A DNA stretch of 64,000 bases, taken from Clostridia bacterium. GTDB lineage: Bacteria; Bacillota; Clostridia; Oscillospirales; Acutalibacteraceae. This document shows positions 1 through 9,319 of this stretch, piece after piece. Location of the stretch: assembly GCA_017399175.1 (NCBI GenBank), contig JAFQEE010000043.1:6021-70020 (forward strand), read 5' to 3'. Within the stretch, counting starts at the first letter, position 1, and every line of letters starts with the position of its first letter. The notes under the pieces are model-generated. The model did not search any database. It was not told the origin of the DNA and saw only the letters and a list, made by a program, of their open reading frames with translations. A program made the translations under genes and the position numbers.

Positions 1-50
1 CAATTTACTATTATATAGAACATTCGTTCAATTGTCAAGAACTTTCCCGA

Positions 51-86
51 AAAAGAAAAGGTGGTGTCGGTTTTTGCCGACACCAC
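51..86 (-). terminator. Intrinsic terminator closing the minus-strand three-gene operon
   Basis: Perfect 10-bp stem GTGGTGTCGG/CCGACACCAC (61-70/77-86) with a 6-nt loop. On the minus strand it is followed by CTTTTCTTTT (60-51). Confidence 0.6.
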
Positions 87-249
87 AATGTTAATTATCC
101 TATTTTATTAGCTGTTTTGACATTTTTTTATATTTTCATAAAGCCAATTCAAAAAGTTGTTTATAAGTTCAGTAAGAATATCAGAAAGTTCATCAGGTTG
201 TAATTACACATACAGTACTAATACTTACCCAACATTCGGATTTGCTTTT

Positions 250-274
250 ATGCTATATTCGGTTAATATAGCAT
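250..274. repeat. Perfect 10-5-10 inverted repeat ATGCTATATT-CGGTT-AATATAGCAT
   Basis: Read directly from the sequence. It lies 35 nt beyond the stop of the 236-aa gene. No T-run follows on either strand. Confidence 0.8.
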
Positions 275-308
275 TGTCAATCCTATATGAAACATATAAA
301 ATTTCTGT

Positions 309-1019
309 TTAAGTATTGTTTATAAAGCTAATATTTTGTGAAGAAATGTTTTCAAAAGTAACACTTACAGTATTTTGACCATTATTTATTTTTGCAAAAA
401 GTGATATAGTTTGTTTTAAGTTTATACCCATAGTGTTTTTATACTTTAAAGTAAATGTTTCTTTGTACTCTAATTTGTCGTCTTTCCAAAATTCTGATAA
501 TAATATTTCTTTTATATCCAAGATTATTTTAATATTATCATTTTGACAAGCATATTGAACAATAGAGTTTGAGCATTTGATAGATTTTAAATTTTCTAGC
601 GCTATATCTAGTGCGATGCCGCTACCAACATTCTTTAATACTAAATCCACACAACTACTGTCTGTACTATTAGTAAGTACATACTCCTTGCTCCACGTTT
701 TGTTTTCTATATTTTCTAAATATTCAGGGGTATCAAGCACTTTATGCATAACAAAAAAGGGGGCATTATTTTGTGCAGTAGAAAACTTCAATTGCTTTTC
801 GGTATCCTTTTTAGTAAAGTATATTGTTGCAATTAAAGAACCCACAGCTATTAGTCCACTTAAAATTGCACCATAAAAGGAAAGAACATCTGGTGCTCCC
901 CAAAGTGTTAAATATCCAGCGTTCATTTTATAGAATTCATTAATAATAACAGGTATCCCCAATACTAAAAAAACAGATCCCAATATTAGCAACAGTACTG
1001 TAATGATTTTTTTAGTCAT
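309..1019 (-). CDS. Membrane protein: two N-terminal TM helices plus a ~160-aa beta-rich C-terminal domain (candidate effector)
   Basis: 236-aa ORF. Hydrophobic segments IITVLLLILGSVFLVLGIPVII and VLSFYGAILSGLIAVGSLIATIYF. RBS GAGGAA lies 5 nt upstream. It is the third gene of a tight co-directional operon. Confidence 0.75.
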   Translation of the reverse strand: MTKKIITVLLLILGSVFLVLGIPVIINEFYKMNAGYLTLWGAPDVLSFYGAILSGLIAVGSLIATIYFTKKDTEKQLKFSTAQNNAPFFVMHKVLDTPEYLENIENKTWSKEYVLTNSTDSSCVDLVLKNVGSGIALDIALENLKSIKCSNSIVQYACQNDNIKIILDIKEILLSEFWKDDKLEYKETFTLKYKNTMGINLKQTISLFAKINNGQNTVSVTFENISSQNISFINNT

Positions 1020-1085
1020 ATAGTTTCCTCATCATTTAAATTGAAATAATTCATACTAATCGATATATAATCACAAATGAATATT

Positions 1086-2033
1086 CTATTTCAAATTATA
1101 CAGCACATACAAAAACCTTTGTTTATTTAATTTTGATATAATCGATGTTGAAACAAGAGGCAAATTTTCCATTAACCTCTCATTAGAAAAGCCAAAATTT
1201 TTTATTATTTTTTCACATATGGTCTTAGCATTAATTGATCCATCTCTATCTTTAATACAATATATCCTATCGATAAAAGCAAGCATAAATAACAAACGAT
1301 AGTTTTCTTGATGAGGTAAATTTCTAAAGACCTCTGGGATTTTTTCAAATTTTAATATAGATATTAATCCATCTAATTTTTCATCAATGATAGACTTATC
1401 AATACTCTTTACCATTGAAATTATTGGTGTAATATAATAACGACCAGCTCTCTCGTCCATTGCAGCTGTCATCAAATAATCTGAAATAACATACTCTAGT
1501 TTTGCCAATCCAAATTTATTGTATGAAACATCATATAATGATACAAATTCCATTTTTTCTTTAGTAGAACTGTCTCTTTTTTCAAAAATAGAAACGCAAA
1601 AATCATCACACATATTATTATATATCAAATCATCAACGACTTTTTGCGATAACGAAATACCTATGCCAGAAAATTGACACTGATTTAAATATATTCCAAT
1701 TGTTGCCGGATCCGTAAACTTCATTGAAAAGCCTTTCTTGTTTTCAAAAACAACTTTATCCGAATTTAACGAACCTTTATCAACATAAGCTGAAAAATAA
1801 CGATGGGTTTTCATAAGTGTATCTCTCAACAATCTAAAAAATTTAATTACATCCTCCAAAGAATCAATTTCAACATAGGCATTATCGCTGTATCCATAAA
1901 TCTTACAATTGCATCTTCGCGAAACTTGTTTCAATGTATCATTAAACTCATTTATAGACGCTGTATATTCTTGATTACTTGTTAACGCAGATGCTCTTAT
2001 TCCAACCATATCAAAAAAAGCAATATATGCCAT
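1086..2033 (-). CDS. Nucleotidyl-cyclase-like protein (class III cyclase-homology-like N-terminal ~150 aa plus a helical C-terminal half)
   Basis: 315-aa ORF. Motifs IAFFDMVGIR (Asp8), KIYGYSDNAYVE (Asp50) and IYLNQCQFSGIGISLSQKVVDDL resemble the beta1, beta2-3 and C-terminal motifs of class III cyclases. RBS GGAGGTG lies 6 nt upstream. Confidence 0.55.
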   Translation of the reverse strand: MAYIAFFDMVGIRASALTSNQEYTASINEFNDTLKQVSRRCNCKIYGYSDNAYVEIDSLEDVIKFFRLLRDTLMKTHRYFSAYVDKGSLNSDKVVFENKKGFSMKFTDPATIGIYLNQCQFSGIGISLSQKVVDDLIYNNMCDDFCVSIFEKRDSSTKEKMEFVSLYDVSYNKFGLAKLEYVISDYLMTAAMDERAGRYYITPIISMVKSIDKSIIDEKLDGLISILKFEKIPEVFRNLPHQENYRLLFMLAFIDRIYCIKDRDGSINAKTICEKIIKNFGFSNERLMENLPLVSTSIISKLNKQRFLYVLYNLK

Positions 2034-2063
2034 TCATAACACCTCCAAAAAAAAGAATTCAAA

Positions 2064-3239
2064 TCACAATTTAATAATGAACGGTACTATTTCAAAATCA
2101 AAGCCACTATCATAATATTTGTGAATCTCTCCCCAATATACTATATCCCATTTAGCTGGATATAATTCTCCTGGGAACAAGGCTTTTAACTGTGCAATCG
2201 AATGAGTGTCATCTGGGATATGCTTAATTAAAACTATTGCAAATCGCTCTTCTTTTCCAAAAGGCCTATCATCGATAAATTGAGGTGGGTTCAATATCTT
2301 TTTTTCAATTTCAACTTTTATTCTACTAGGACTGATTTGACCTTGATAAATGTTTCTGTCAAAAACTTTTTCAAGCGGATTTACAATTTCTTTTTCTTTA
2401 TAAAATACTCTACCATTTTCTTTAAAATACCACTCTTGGAATTTTTTCCACAAATTGCAATAGTCTTCAAAAAAAGCGAATACATCAGAATCAAAATTTT
2501 TTACTATATCATATGGTGCAACAGTAAAAATTGAAAGGAACGAAATATAAGGAGTGTCCGTCTTTAATTTTGAAGCAACATACTTTATCAAATTGCGTCC
2601 ATCTTTAGAAAATGTTTTGAGAAAACTTTCATCTTTTGAACACTCAAGAATAAACTGTACCTTATCTGCAGAGATTTTTTGCTTATCATCATGATGATAA
2701 GCTACATCACTCACTCCTAAATAATGACACATGCACGAGTCTACAAGAAGTGCTTCAGAATGAAGTATAGCGATATCTTCGGATAAACAAATTTGGTAAA
2801 ACGATGGTGGATTATTATGTGCCTCTGTCGGAACGAAATATGCCGAATCTTCCTTGAATTGTATAATCATATTATGCGTAGCTTCATTCATTTTTAGTTT
2901 TAAAATATCCTCTCGAGCTCCCGGATACAATAATATTCTAATGTTCTTTCGCCTAGAATCCGCAACATTATTAAAAATTAAATTGATTTTTTTATCTTCT
3001 GGAGAAAAAACAGTATTCTTTTTTACGAGAGCAGAGCATCTGTTATGTATATAATCGCTTAATATTTTATTCGATTCGTTTAACTTTGTACAAATTTGCA
3101 AAACATTAACAAACTGTTCGCTACCGCTTAAAATATTATTTAATCTGAAATAAGTCGCGTCGGCCATTTCATTAGCGTATTCGTCATCTCCAGGAAAAAC
3201 TGTAATGTTAAAAAGGATTCGTTCTTTTTCACCATTCAT
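2064..3239 (-). CDS. Hypothetical protein, first gene of the operon (no recognisable motif)
   Basis: 391-aa uninterrupted ORF in very AT-rich DNA. RBS AGAGGAG lies upstream. Its stop is 30 nt before the next start. Confidence 0.7.
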   Translation of the reverse strand: MNGEKERILFNITVFPGDDEYANEMADATYFRLNNILSGSEQFVNVLQICTKLNESNKILSDYIHNRCSALVKKNTVFSPEDKKINLIFNNVADSRRKNIRILLYPGAREDILKLKMNEATHNMIIQFKEDSAYFVPTEAHNNPPSFYQICLSEDIAILHSEALLVDSCMCHYLGVSDVAYHHDDKQKISADKVQFILECSKDESFLKTFSKDGRNLIKYVASKLKTDTPYISFLSIFTVAPYDIVKNFDSDVFAFFEDYCNLWKKFQEWYFKENGRVFYKEKEIVNPLEKVFDRNIYQGQISPSRIKVEIEKKILNPPQFIDDRPFGKEERFAIVLIKHIPDDTHSIAQLKALFPGELYPAKWDIVYWGEIHKYYDSGFDFEIVPFIIKL

Positions 3240-3464
3240 TTATATTGCTCCTCTTGTTATAAAATATAGTTTTAGAAATTGCTATTATTTACTGTTAACT
3301 TTTTTATTCGGGATAAATTTACATACAATGATAGAACTCAACAGATTATAAATTAAATTCGCAAGATCATTTAATACAAATATAGAATATATTAAAATCA
3401 TCATCTTTTTCAATTAGTAATGCAAAAACGCCGCACTTTTCGACAAAAACGCTTGTTTTTCGTC

Positions 3465-3960
3465 TCATTTTCCATTGCTATCAAACTCCACCCACGGCTT
3501 TTTAAATGCACCTATCTTCCTCATTGAAGTATAAACCTTATATTCATCTTCGCCACATTTGAGTGCAACAAAATCCTTGGTTACTTCTTCCATATAATGC
3601 AGGTTGACTATGTAACTGTAATGGGGTTGGGCGAAAGATTTTTCATCGAGAACTTCTTTCCAGTACTCCATTGAGTAGTGCGTTTCGTTTTTTTCGGTCT
3701 GTTATATACAGCACGGATTTTCTGTCCTCTATGGCAATGTATATAATTTCGTGTAGGCACACCCTGAAAATATCCTTGTTGCACATTGTCACAGATATAC
3801 CCTGGTAAATGCGATAACATTTGCTGTCACTTTCAGAAATGAAAAGGCCGTTACAACCGTGATATGTTTCTGGATAATGTGATAAACCATTGCTATTCAG
3901 GATTTCTACTATTTCCTCTTTTGTTTTGATGTGTCCGATTTCGTTTGTTTTCATAAGCAT
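3465..3960 (-). pseudogene. LytTR-domain DNA-binding protein, frameshifted at a homopolymer
   Basis: Two ORFs (3643-4068 and 3465-3671) carry LytTR-like halves (EIIYIAIEDRKSVLYITD and FAQPHYSYIVNLHYMEEV). Removing one base from the T7/A7 run at 3688-3694 joins them in frame. Confidence 0.7.
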
Positions 3961-4082
3961 TTTCCTTAAAATATAATCTGTCTTATATTTATAAAGTGCT
4001 GTATAAAGGAAAAAGTAACGCCATTTTTTCGAAAAAGAACGAACTTTGTCGAAATCAACAATTTGCACAACTATTCAAACAA

Positions 4083-4125
4083 AAACAACCGCCTTACTTG
4101 CGAAACACAAGTAAGGCGGTTGTTT
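4083..4125 (-). terminator. Strong intrinsic terminator (18-bp stem)
   Basis: AAACAACCGCCTTACTTG / CAAGTAAGGCGGTTGTTT with loop CGAAACA. On the minus strand it is followed by TTTGTTTG. Confidence 0.75.
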
Positions 4126-4174
4126 CATATTCACATTTCTATTTAATCAAACTTATCATCAAATATAAGACAGT

Positions 4175-4198
4175 ATTGGTGTAGCTGCTGACACCAAT
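4175..4198 (-). terminator. Hairpin immediately downstream of the 520-aa gene
   Basis: ATTGGTGT / ACACCAAT stem with an 8-nt loop, 23 nt after the stop at 4221. The T tract is weak. Confidence 0.4.
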
Positions 4199-4220
4199 GG
4201 AGTTTATTCATTAATATTAT

Positions 4221-5783
4221 TTATTGTTCTTCTATATATTGACCGTCAGGTAAAGGTTTAAATAATATTGGAAGTGGAAGAACATCACTTGTTCTTTCCA
4301 GCAACATCAAAGCCCATTTCAAGTTGTACTCTTTCCCATATTCAGCATCAAACAAGTTCATCAAACTTGTTCCATATTCAATAGGATTTTCAGGTGTTAA
4401 GTTTAATATAAATCCAAATGGATATGCTCCTAAATCACAACACGTTGTTGCTTTAGGACCTGCATCTGATATACTAGCAAGGGTAGTTGGTCCAACCATT
4501 AATTGTCCGACATTTTTATGAGTTAAATAAATGCGCAAATCAAATAGTGATTTATCAATAGTATTGCTTTCTTTATTAAGTAAAAATTCATCAAAGCCTA
4601 ATCGCTTGACTTCTGAATAAGGCAACAAACTACAAAACATTGTGATGACTTGCTTCACAAAAGCCAAAGCAGGAAATTTTCTTGTGCTAAAGGCAAAAAT
4701 TTCACCATGTTTCAAGGGATCCATTTTATATAAAGCATAGCCAACTTCTTTCGCAACATCATTATATACTGTTGCATACCATGCACCGGTATTATTGTTA
4801 CATCTTTCACACACAGAGTATTTGCCCATACCTTGCTGTTGATTTTTATAATATGCCTTTTCACCTTTGTATCTTTTAATGGCATCTTCTCCGGTATATA
4901 CTTTAGTTCGATTATTATTAAGAGCATTTTCAGGTGGAATATGTTCAAATGATAATTTACAGTATGTACCGCATATTTGACATTCGCCATAATGATAAAC
5001 TTTTTCAAATTTTTTATCTGACAGTTCTGCAAAAATTATCGGTGTAGAAAGTTGACTTTCTAATCCAACTTTATCCCAAGTAGCTGTCCAAATAAGATAT
5101 GGCTCAAGTGGTAAAAAATCTTTTACTTTGATATGTGCACCGTCACGAACAAGCAAACCAGCTTTTGCCATTTTTTCAGCATCAAAATAAAGTCTGGCGC
5201 CCGTTTTATATTCTGCATCAATATCCATTACAATTTTGCTTGATTGTTTGGAATTAACAACGATTTCACCACTGACACCACCACCGAACATAACATAATC
5301 GCAAAAACAAACAGGATCACCAAGTAGTTTTCCAATAGGTTCTTTTTCAGAAGTAGCAAGTTTATTCCAACTTTTGAGCATTCCGTCTTTCTGTATTTGA
5401 TACCAATTTTCCATTGATGTGCTATGTACTAAAATTGGCATTTCATAATCACGTAGGAGTGTTTCATTATAACTGTGTCCAGTATAATGGTTCTGAGCTT
5501 GATTATATTCATCTTCTGTAATTGCAACAATACCGTTAAGATTACTTGCATTACAATATCCGATAAAATCTCCGACAGCCATTTTCCAATCATCGTGAAG
5601 CTGCTTGCTGATTTTTATGGTATAAGCACAACCATTCTTCGCACCAACAATCATTGCAGTATCTATATTAGATGAAAGAATCAATACTAACCAAGAGGAA
5701 TCATATTCACTTTTTGTTATCGGATTTATATTGTTTTCTATAAAATTATCTACTCTATAAATCAAGGTTAACACCCCTTCCAT
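4221..5783 (-). CDS. Fusion protein: N-terminal unknown region, KptA/Tpt1- or DarT-like (ART-fold-like) segment, and C-terminal Cys4 HNH-like nuclease module
   Basis: 520-aa ORF. PILVHSTSMENWYQIQKDGML and DAEKMAKAGLLVRDGAHIKVKDFLPLEPYL resemble KptA LYHGTxxxFLDxILxxGL and AKAMxxxG...ADNGVWLTDxVP. C268-x2-C271...E280-H281...C325-x2-C328-N329 is a bba-Me/HNH-like signature. Confidence 0.5.
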   Translation of the reverse strand: MEGVLTLIYRVDNFIENNINPITKSEYDSSWLVLILSSNIDTAMIVGAKNGCAYTIKISKQLHDDWKMAVGDFIGYCNASNLNGIVAITEDEYNQAQNHYTGHSYNETLLRDYEMPILVHSTSMENWYQIQKDGMLKSWNKLATSEKEPIGKLLGDPVCFCDYVMFGGGVSGEIVVNSKQSSKIVMDIDAEYKTGARLYFDAEKMAKAGLLVRDGAHIKVKDFLPLEPYLIWTATWDKVGLESQLSTPIIFAELSDKKFEKVYHYGECQICGTYCKLSFEHIPPENALNNNRTKVYTGEDAIKRYKGEKAYYKNQQQGMGKYSVCERCNNNTGAWYATVYNDVAKEVGYALYKMDPLKHGEIFAFSTRKFPALAFVKQVITMFCSLLPYSEVKRLGFDEFLLNKESNTIDKSLFDLRIYLTHKNVGQLMVGPTTLASISDAGPKATTCCDLGAYPFGFILNLTPENPIEYGTSLMNLFDAEYGKEYNLKWALMLLERTSDVLPLPILFKPLPDGQYIEEQ

Positions 5784-5883
5784 CGATAATATATTATTAT
5801 ATCATATTAAGTAAATTATTTCTACCTTTAATGCGCTTTTCAGGTCAAAACCTTGACAATGCGGTGTATGATTGATATAATAA

Positions 5884-5910: not shown

Positions 5911-6573
5911 ATGGCAAGGAATAAATACCCCGAAGAAACAATAACCCTAATTCTTGATACGGCTCAAAAGCTATTTCTTGAAAAAGGTTACGAACACACA
6001 ACGATTCAAGATATTATTGATAATTTAGGCGGTCTTACAAAGGGTGCTATTTATCATCATTTCACATCAAAAGAGGACATCCTGAACGCAGTTACTGCAA
6101 GACTTTTTCAGGAAAACTCTTTGGCTCGTAAGTGGAATAAGATAGCAGAAGACGCATCTCTCAACGGTGCAGAGAAGCTTAAAGCTATGCTTTACGAGTC
6201 CCTCGTTGACGAACAGGAACAGAAGTTCAGAAGTATGGGTATTCATCTGCAGAATATGCCTCATATGTTAAGTGACTTGCTTTTAAGGTCTGTCAATGAC
6301 ATTGCACCTAATGCAATCAAGCCTGTACTTGAAGAAGGCATAAAGGACGGCTCAATTAAAATACCGTTTGCAAAAGAGCTTGCAGAGGTTATCTCTTTAC
6401 TTGCCAATGTTTGGCTCAATCCTCTTGTATTCTCTATGAGCGATGAGGATATTGAGAAAAAGTGTCAGGTAATTTTAGGCATGATGGCTATGCTCGGTGT
6501 TGATGTTTCTGACATGTACCCGGCGGTTTATAATATGAACAAGCAAATCAACGAAATGGACAACAGAAAATGA
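5911..6573 (+). CDS. TetR/AcrR family transcriptional regulator
   Basis: N-terminal HTH signature TIQDIIDNLGGLTKGAIYHHFTSKEDIL. 220 aa. Confidence 0.9.
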   Translation: MARNKYPEETITLILDTAQKLFLEKGYEHTTIQDIIDNLGGLTKGAIYHHFTSKEDILNAVTARLFQENSLARKWNKIAEDASLNGAEKLKAMLYESLVDEQEQKFRSMGIHLQNMPHMLSDLLLRSVNDIAPNAIKPVLEEGIKDGSIKIPFAKELAEVISLLANVWLNPLVFSMSDEDIEKKCQVILGMMAMLGVDVSDMYPAVYNMNKQINEMDNRK

Positions 6574-8962: not shown

Positions 8963-9319
8963 TTATGTATAAATCAAAGAAGAATTTACTATTTCTCTTG
9001 CCCTTACCTCAATATTCTGCACACGGCATATCCATTCCATCTGATTTTCTTCTTTCAGTTGCTCGGTTACGCCTTCAGTCACTTTCATCTGTTCTACAAG
9101 AGTATCAAACATATCTCGTGCCATATTTTCTATCTCGGCACAGTGCTGATAGAGTTCACCTTGGGTAAGTAGTGTTGTAAATAACACCTTCTTGTTTTTT
9201 AGCAGGTAATCCTTGTGCATCATACCCCATTTGCCGAGGCGGATGGCTGTTTCCTCAGGTGGTAGGGTGAGATTGGGTATCATATAATCTGCGACTTGTC
9301 TGTATGTAATGTTTGCCAT
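8963..9319 (-). CDS. tnpV: TnpV-like transposon-encoded protein
   Basis: Resembles my recollection of the TnpV family: ...YxIPxLTLPxE...IGKWGxxHxxYLxxxxxxxxxxLLxxGxL...EGVTEQLKxxNQMxW. Confidence 0.75.
   Translation of the reverse strand: MANITYRQVADYMIPNLTLPPEETAIRLGKWGMMHKDYLLKNKKVLFTTLLTQGELYQHCAEIENMARDMFDTLVEQMKVTEGVTEQLKEENQMEWICRVQNIEVRAREIVNSSLIYT

Follow-up and report, generated by a model that had tools for sequence, protein, structure and literature searches.

The stretch of DNA analysed here (64,000 nucleotides, hereafter the window) covers positions 6,021 to 70,020 of contig JAFQEE010000043.1 from a Clostridia bacterium of the family Acutalibacteraceae (assembly GCA_017399175.1), and carries near its left end an operon of three closely packed genes, all on the minus strand and in the order A, B, C. 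Gene B, in the middle (1086..2033), has a ribosome-binding site GGAGGTG placed 6 nt 5' of its ATG and encodes a cyclase-homology-like protein of 315 residues, defined by its open reading frame (ORF), its homologues and an AlphaFold2 (AF2) model. Gene A (2064..3239), defined by the same three kinds of evidence, encodes a partner of 391 residues, while gene C (309..1019), recognized by hydropathy and by comparison of loci, is an accessory third gene for a protein of 236 residues with two N-terminal transmembrane (TM) helices and a soluble C-terminal domain. An earlier sequence-only reading of gene B had pointed to three stretches that resemble motifs of class III nucleotidyl cyclases, and all three occur in the protein exactly as quoted: residues 4-13 (IAFFDMVGIR), 44-55 (KIYGYSDNAYVE) and 113-136 (GIYLNQCQFSGIGISLSQKVVDDL).

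The AF2 model of gene B, obtained from an alignment of 42 sequences and with no templates, has a predicted local distance difference test score (pLDDT) of 94.4 and a predicted template modelling score (pTM) of 0.92. Its residues 1-175 (1509..2033, minus strand) are arranged as β1 (3-10), two helices (12-18 and 20-38), β2 (43-48), β3 (51-56), α3 (59-74) and β4 (79-86), followed by a β hairpin (91-95/102-106), α4 (109-120), β7 (125-128), α5 (130-138), β8 (145-151) and an extra strand (163-169). This is the order of a class III cyclase homology domain (CHD), β1-α1-α2-β2-β3-α3-β4, arm hairpin and α4-β7-α5-β8, and the assignment comes from two structural comparisons. With Foldseek, 118 PDB matches passed E <= 1e-3; adenylyl and guanylyl cyclases headed the list, the best having E ~1e-5, a probability of 1.00 and a template modelling score on the target of 0.55-0.70. 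An independent search with VIA-align against 48,161 PDB representatives placed class III cyclases or cyclase-like proteins exclusively at ranks 1 to 24. The best of these was the CHD of Rv1900c (1ybt_A), with Z 14.4 and a root mean square deviation (rmsd) of 3.1 Å for 152 aligned of 167 residues, followed by the α subunit of soluble guanylyl cyclase (sGCα, 3uvj_A; Z 13.8), CyaB (Z 13.6) and the C1 (Z 13.3) and C2 (Z 13.1, rmsd 2.3 Å over 145 residues) domains of adenylyl cyclase (AC). Three Pycsar cyclases were also matched (7r65, Z 11.9; 8jsf, Z 11.6; 8jsz, Z 11.1), as was the class III cyclase-like ATP-binding protein 6yii (Z 10.2). Given that the best matches of unrelated folds reach only Z 7-8 in the calibration of this method, a Z of 14.4 with near-complete coverage of the domain makes the assignment clear, and on the strength of the model we are highly confident that residues 1-175 have the class III cyclase fold. 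The structural resemblance to cyclases, including PycC enzymes, that the sequence-only reading had anticipated is thereby borne out.

The remainder of the protein, residues 176-315 (1089..1508, minus strand), is an all-helical domain in the model, with eight helices between residues 176 and 314 and a conserved motif A-G-R198-Y-Y-x-[TS]. The high pTM of the model suggests that it packs rigidly on the cyclase domain. The C-terminal ~165 residues had been described as helical and as matching nothing known. The helical character stands, and no match to this domain was found in Pfam or in PDB sequences; its extent had been overestimated, being ~140 residues (176-314), as residues 145-169 contribute β-strands to the cyclase domain.

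The close homologues of gene B number 60, with identities of 36-100% and lengths of 310-350 residues. For the wider family, a threshold of E <= 1e-3 gave 175 clusters at 50% identity, each with one representative, and identities go down to ~20%. All conservation counts given here refer to these 175 aligned representatives. D8 (codon GAT, 2010..2012, minus strand) is kept in 165 of them (94%) and D50 (codon GAT, 1884..1886, minus strand) in every one; both aspartates thus persist where the identity of the family is elsewhere only 20-40%. D50 lies in the motif F/Y-S-D-[CSN]-A-Y, for which the family consensus is F-S-D-C-A-Y and gene B reads Y-S-D-N-A-Y; the preceding S49 is likewise among the invariant or near-invariant residues. 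Both occupy, in the model, the places where class III cyclases have their metal-binding aspartates: D8 terminates β1 and D50 is part of the β2-β3 hairpin.

The aligned ranges of VIA-align agree with this placement. Residue 1 of the model pairs with residue 389 of AC C1 (1cs4_A) and with residue 479 of sGCα (3uvj_A), and because the ranges start in this way D8 falls opposite D396 of AC and D486 of sGCα. D50 comes to lie two residues before D440 and D530, an offset equal to the difference between the D8-D50 spacing of 42 residues and the canonical spacing of 44. The metal ligands are D396 and D440 in AC, and D486 and D530 in sGCα (PMC3591389, PMC7289801). The spacing of 44 was found in 18 out of 18 genuine PF00211 domains from Bacillota genomes, which were taken as the canonical CHD reference and aligned for hhalign; within the gene B family it ranges from 41 to 49, and is mostly 42-44. 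The closeness of 42 to the ~44 of class III cyclases, to which the sequence-only reading had pointed, is therefore real. In addition, a short local alignment made by hhalign, which is itself non-significant, pairs D8 with the aspartate of F-x-D-I-x-G-F-T and D50 with that of K-x-x-G-D. Secondary structure, aligned ranges and local pairing are thus consistent with one another and place D8 and D50, indirectly, at the predicted metal site, where the sequence-only reading had expected them.

The rest of the active site is different. In AC, helix α4 contributes the transition-state residues N1025 and R1029, class III cyclases specify the base by a Lys/Asp pair for ATP and a Glu/Cys pair for GTP, and the Asn, Arg and Lys of cyclases hold a single nucleoside triphosphate (NTP) in the conformation that cyclizes. 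The α4 region of the gene B family has no conserved Asn, and no conserved Arg is found in residues 107-125; what is conserved there is Y115, Q118 and K/S122. The third of the quoted stretches had been compared with G-x-x-V-N-x-A-x-R, and this comparison fails since position 117 is variable in the family (L, K, A, Q, M and others), so that N117 cannot be the catalytic Asn. Likewise, the comparison of the second stretch with K-x-i-G-D holds for the invariant D50 and not for K44, which is present in only 58 of the 175 representatives. No conserved base-specifying Lys was identified, nor a conserved acidic or Cys residue in the arm. The invariant G87 is followed by Ser and not by Arg, at the position of R484 in AC, and the last strand, where cyclases have the region of the γ-phosphate Lys, carries an invariant D168 while the β8 Lys has no conserved counterpart. 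The sequence-only reading was correct in reporting the Arg as absent, and too lenient in counting this as the one missing residue, given that conserved counterparts are also lacking for the Asn, for the γ-phosphate Lys and for the Lys that specifies the base.

The residues that are invariant or nearly so in the family are G11, T12, K/R13, S49, R70, G87, F106, Y115 and Q118, and further K/S122, G123 (175 of 175), G125, S148, D168, R198, Y199 and Y200. Judged from the alignment, only the metal pair and the Gly-Thr after the first Asp, as in D-I-x-G-F-T, survive from the canonical active site. The other canonical residues are replaced by a set proper to the family (G11-T-K/R13, R70, Y115, Q118, K/S122, G123-I-G125, S148, D168 and R198-Y-Y), of which R198-Y-Y comes from the attached helical domain. 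Compared with the class III CHDs of PF00211 (Rv1900c, 1ybt; sGC α/β, 3uvj; AC C1/C2, 1cs4/1ab8; CyaC, 1wc1), gene B is alike in the topology of the whole domain (Z 12-14.4, 145-169 residues) and in the placement of the metal aspartates, and is unlike them in lacking any significant sequence or profile similarity and conserved counterparts of the α4 Asn/Arg, the base-specifying pair and the β8 Lys. It also differs in having the conserved R70, Y115, Q118, K/S122-G-I-G and D168, a C-terminal helical domain of ~140 residues with R-Y-Y, and an obligate partner gene that is not a cyclase.

This pattern of conservation also raises the question of whether gene B might instead be a palm enzyme of the polymerase type, one that joins at least two nucleotides and does not cyclize a single NTP, its product being a cyclic di- or oligonucleotide as made by GGDEF domains, Cas10 and mCpol, or a protein-primed oligonucleotide as for Hailong HalB, which reportedly carries out such a synthesis. 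The metal aspartates, which are the only canonical residues conserved, are common to all palm enzymes, the Asn, Arg and Lys that hold a single NTP are absent, and base binding or priming could fall to the conserved Y115, Y199 and Y200. Structures of this kind match the model as well, at Z 9-10: GGDEF domains reach at most Z 9.8 with 110-120 residues aligned, Cas10 (Cmr2) Z 9.3, and the Panoptes mCpol OptS (9mnr_A) Z 9.2 over 107 residues; HalB had no entry among the 50 best PDB matches. GGDEF and Cas10 share with gene B the βααββαβ palm core and two metal-binding acidic residues (Z 9-9.8). Nonetheless, the class III domains match better, with Z 12-14.4 over 150-160 residues against Z ~9 over 107-122 for GGDEF and mCpol, and the better match takes in the cyclase-specific arm hairpin and the α4-β7-α5-β8 half, the second half of the domain being of class III type. 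Gene B has no GG[DE]EF or GGDD-type motif. The proximity of a 2-TM protein, recalling Panoptes and PanDA (PMC13434031, PMC13640721), would also suit a polymerase-type enzyme, which on balance we consider unlikely.

The loss of most of the canonical catalytic residues could alternatively mean that gene B is catalytically dead, a module for nucleotide binding or scaffolding like 6yii that senses a nucleotide or holds its partner while gene A carries the activity. The presence of 6yii itself among the structural matches agrees with this, as does a fused homologue, described below, that has no aspartate at the D50 position. A dead module is hard to reconcile with an invariant D50 and a D8 kept in 94% of representatives at identities down to 20%, and with the retention of K/R13, R70, Q118, D168 and R198, a pattern that is typical of a selected active site. 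We regard this alternative as quite unlikely, and the catalytic activity of gene B, as far as the model and the conservation can tell, as probable. The sequence-only reading had left a choice between a divergent or pyrimidine-type cyclase, another nucleotidyltransferase and an inactive sensor. The near-invariant acidic pair argues against the last of these, and nothing singles out a pyrimidine cyclase, because the Pycsar enzymes score below the purine cyclases and no effector with a domain for binding cyclic nucleoside monophosphates (cNMP) is present.

In all the loci examined, gene A immediately precedes gene B. These are the window, L001 (a metagenome-assembled genome of Acutalibacteraceae, where the stop codon of gene A overlaps the start of gene B), L002 (a rumen Clostridiales locus), L024-29 (from gut metagenomes), L003 (Chitinophagales, where B is 24% and A 19% identical and the stop/start overlap is again present), and the IMG/VR loci L033-35, where B is 25% identical and the upstream gene is weakly A-like (profile E 0.006). 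The partner-like gene of L033 had no match to gene A by BLASTP. Scanning IMG/VR with the close gene B family found none, and scanning with the distant family found one element, three times. The homologues of gene A number 52, with identities of 38-98% and lengths of ~390 residues.

A metagenomic protein of 696 residues, P0137, is a natural fusion of the two genes, with a match to the gene A profile over residues 170-374 (hhalign E 0.0037) followed by the gene B domain from 382 to 682, and may represent a derivative that has lost activity or taken on a regulatory role. That the two products form a complex is proposed on the grounds of translational coupling, the strict co-occurrence of the genes and this single fusion.

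The AF2 model of gene A has a pLDDT of 92.1. Foldseek found no match to it in the PDB or BFVD, and none was found in the ESM Atlas. The best VIA-align match, to a Rossmann-like fold over residues 4-167, has Z 7.5, which is too generic to be treated as a finding. Conserved CxCH and HHDD stretches of the protein were considered as a metal or HD site, an idea that was dropped because the distant partner in L003 lacks them.

The hydropathy of gene C peaks in two hydrophobic helices, at residues 1-30 and 44-70, and its family has a conserved juxtamembrane motif IP-x-IINE-x-YK-x-N-x-GY-x-T-x-W. The gene lies 3' of gene B in five of the nine distinct loci (the window, L001, L027, L028 and L029). Its matches in the ESM Atlas are to unnamed clusters only. 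Searches of genes A and C against Pfam, PADLOC and NCBIfam gave nothing meaningful, and in PHROGs all three proteins of the operon had only weak matches (E >= 0.0035).

A small synthase next to a membrane protein brings two groups of known systems to mind. Panoptes consists of the mCpol OptS and the 2TM-β protein OptE, and PanDA of the minimal DAC PanS and the 2TM-β protein PanE; in these, unrelated synthases have repeatedly been coupled to 2TM-β effectors as constitutive guard signals (PMC13434031, PMC13640721). The operon resembles them in combining a small synthase of nucleotides, which for Panoptes is one from the palm superfamily, with a neighbouring protein of ~230-250 residues that has a pair of N-terminal TM helices besides a small soluble domain, and in being carried by mobile or defence loci. 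It differs in that mCpol covers only the core palm of gene B, in that no Cap15_CD_rec (PF18153) or 2TM-β signature was found in gene C with Pfam, and in that its core is formed by A and B and not by a synthase with a 2-TM protein.

The resemblance to Pycsar lies in the class III-type fold of PycC (7r65, 8jsf, 8jsz; Z 11.1-11.9) and in the small size of the operon, where the gene for a membrane protein may come after that for the cyclase. Here the differences are that gene B has no PADLOC match to PycC and scores below the purine cyclases against the Pycsar structures, that genes A and C have no cNMP-binding domain, that there is an additional conserved partner of 391 residues, and that about half of the loci do without the 2-TM gene. 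To our knowledge, class III cyclases have been implicated in phage defence only through Pycsar. With gene B, the class III cyclase kind gains a new form that is structurally cryptic and belongs to an undescribed operon; it is neither Pycsar nor Panoptes nor a GGDEF system.

The surroundings of the operon are those of mobile DNA. The window starts 6 kb into a contig of 161 kb, and the bases directly to its left (contig positions 1-6020, L031) carry two large serine recombinase genes, one of them apparently split into parts of 418 and 141 residues, together with a ParB-like gene and a Mob/relaxase-like gene. The guanine-plus-cytosine (GC) content is 28-31% over the operon and ~36% in the flanks beyond the TetR gene. 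Together with window positions 1-5800, the genes of L031 look like an integrative mobilisable element, and because of these adjoining genes and the low GC the operon is assigned to its cargo. In L024-26, genes A and B also lie among genes of conjugative elements. The gene B family is distributed patchily across Bacillota and Bacteroidota, and among 401 sampled Bacillota genomes only one, the window's own, carries it; this genome has no canonical PF00211 cyclase. Close variants are present in bovine and sheep gut metagenomes. In a bovine metatranscriptome (run X6), a contig of 5,565 nt corresponds to window positions 304-3227 and takes in all three genes at ~97% identity and a mean depth of 94.5; it breaks off into adapter sequence 12 nt before reaching the gene A start codon. 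Given that contigs from RNA libraries do not prove transcription, this is only a weak hint of expression.

Such a context is compatible with a role other than defence against phages, as an addiction or maintenance module or a regulatory module of the integrative mobilisable element, or as a second-messenger pathway of the host. The neighbouring recombinase, ParB-like and relaxase genes and the conjugative-element-like regions of L024-26 would suit this, and no known defence hidden Markov model of PADLOC matches any of the three proteins. A conflict system fits better with the rare and patchy distribution across phyla, with the NsnB/AriA-like ATPase and the HEPN/RES protein found next to some copies, and with a 2-TM protein of the kind typical of abortive infection; moreover, addiction and defence are not mutually exclusive. 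An operon with no anti-phage role at all is, in our estimate, improbable.

Taking these results together, the explanation that we favour, by a modest degree of confidence, is that gene B is a cryptic and divergent enzyme of the class III nucleotidyl cyclase fold, partnered with gene A in a conflict module on mobile DNA. Gene B would act as an active Mg/Mn-dependent nucleotidyltransferase in complex with the product of gene A. It would bind its NTP in a way unlike that of adenylyl and guanylyl cyclases, and would probably make a different product, cyclic or linear, that is not of the cAMP, cGMP, cCMP or cUMP type. The pair would be mobile-element cargo that acts in conflicts with phages or other mobile elements, and in the three-gene form gene C would be a membrane effector under positive or negative control of the nucleotide product.

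The proposal that A and B, with or without C, form a nucleotide-signalling conflict system we hold tentatively, at somewhat less than an even chance. A more specific version appears rather doubtful to us. It describes a mobile-element defence system not reported before, in which the class III-type synthase, complexed with its partner of novel fold, makes a non-canonical nucleotide that gates the 2-TM effector or, as in Panoptes and PanDA, silences it constitutively; in the two-gene forms, gene A would itself supply the effector. The product would not be a standard 3',5'-cNMP under this version, because the contacts to ribose, phosphate and base are all replaced.

Several observations weigh against the favoured explanation and concern, to begin with, the sequence of gene B. 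Searched against Pfam with hmmscan, it matched no family at E <= 1, and the same search with 60 diverse members of the family gave scattered weak matches and no cyclase family. The profile of the family found only chance matches among all PDB sequences (best E 0.07), and hhalign against the 18 genuine CHDs gave P 0.18-0.19, which is not significant. Extended and global hhalign alignments were unreliable and did not fix the register of α4, that is, which residue is equivalent to the Asn or the Arg. PADLOC and NCBIfam had no match to gene B, and PHROGs two weak, non-significant ones (E 0.011 and 0.078). At the level of sequence profiles the motif resemblance to cyclases is thus no better than chance, and its significance comes from the comparison of folds only; by the sequence criteria of PF00211 itself, the gene B family falls outside that family.

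Other points of this kind concern the chemistry and the biology. D8 and D50 were mapped from secondary structure and from the ends of aligned ranges, and not by superposition. Of the seven canonical positions that are non-metal or set specificity, five lack a conserved equivalent, for which reason cyclase chemistry is not assured, and class III cyclases function as head-to-tail dimers with a shared active site. The fusion P0137 has a Gly at the position of D50 (F-F-S-G-C-A-Y). Gene C is missing from about half of the loci (L002, L003, L024-26, L033-35), and hhalign of its 15-member family against one genuine Cap15 gave P 0.1. No recognizable cyclic-nucleotide receptor domain was found in any neighbour, Pfam showing no cNMP-binding domain in genes A and C, and the role in defence is drawn from the genomic context.

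The family is of interest because few signalling enzymes have been studied as well as the class III cyclases, and Pfam, NCBIfam and PADLOC miss this branch, which in public metagenomes comprises 175 or more clusters when grouped at 50% identity. It has kept an old fold and its metal pair, has rebuilt the remainder of the active site, and has gained a fixed partner whose fold has no known counterpart. If gene B is active, it would provide a new nucleotide product or a new way of binding the substrate on an old scaffold, and would join mCpol and DAC as the third type of synthase paired with small 2-TM proteins on mobile elements. In practical terms, the operon offers a testable module of two or three genes from ruminant-gut Clostridia.

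Other features of the operon and its relatives are more minor. A promoter-like site lies 5' of gene A (TTGAAA-16-TATATT, 3386..3413, minus strand), recognized by consensus match only (10 of 12 positions), and a terminator-like hairpin in the sequence, with a stem of 10 pairs followed by a T-run, lies at the end of the operon (61..86, minus strand). Adjoining the three-gene operon of L001 (7900-10606, minus strand) are genes for an AAA_15/AAA_21 ATPase of 538 residues, which matches NsnB (5.6e-52) and AriA (8e-30) in PADLOC, and for an unannotated partner of 361 residues, which together probably form a Menshen- or PARIS-like system. In L003, a HEPN/RES protein and ArdC adjoin the operon. Near the operon of L029 (5812-7281, minus strand) is a carbon-nitrogen hydrolase-domain protein of 489 residues that matches the nitrilase part of the PADLOC model RTasNitrilase (DRT), no reverse transcriptase part being detected in it.

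Within the window, the 118-residue ORF at 8963-9319 (minus strand), outside the low-GC island, is of a phage or mobile-element type and matches PHROG 24764 (E 1e-37), a PHROG of unknown function. Fragments of a LytTR-type DNA-binding domain occur in two overlapping frames at 3465-4068 (minus strand; Pfam LytTR E 0.0015 for an ORF of 141 residues), which fits a frameshifted regulator. Inside the island, the ORF at 4221-5783 (minus strand) encodes 520 residues with a weak N-terminal likeness to the RNA 2'-phosphotransferase Tpt1/KptA (Pfam E 0.09, NCBIfam E 0.037), a Cys-rich, HNH-looking CxxC...H...N stretch and a match to PHROG 21495 (E 1.5e-4); possibly the island has in this ORF a second gene for conflict.

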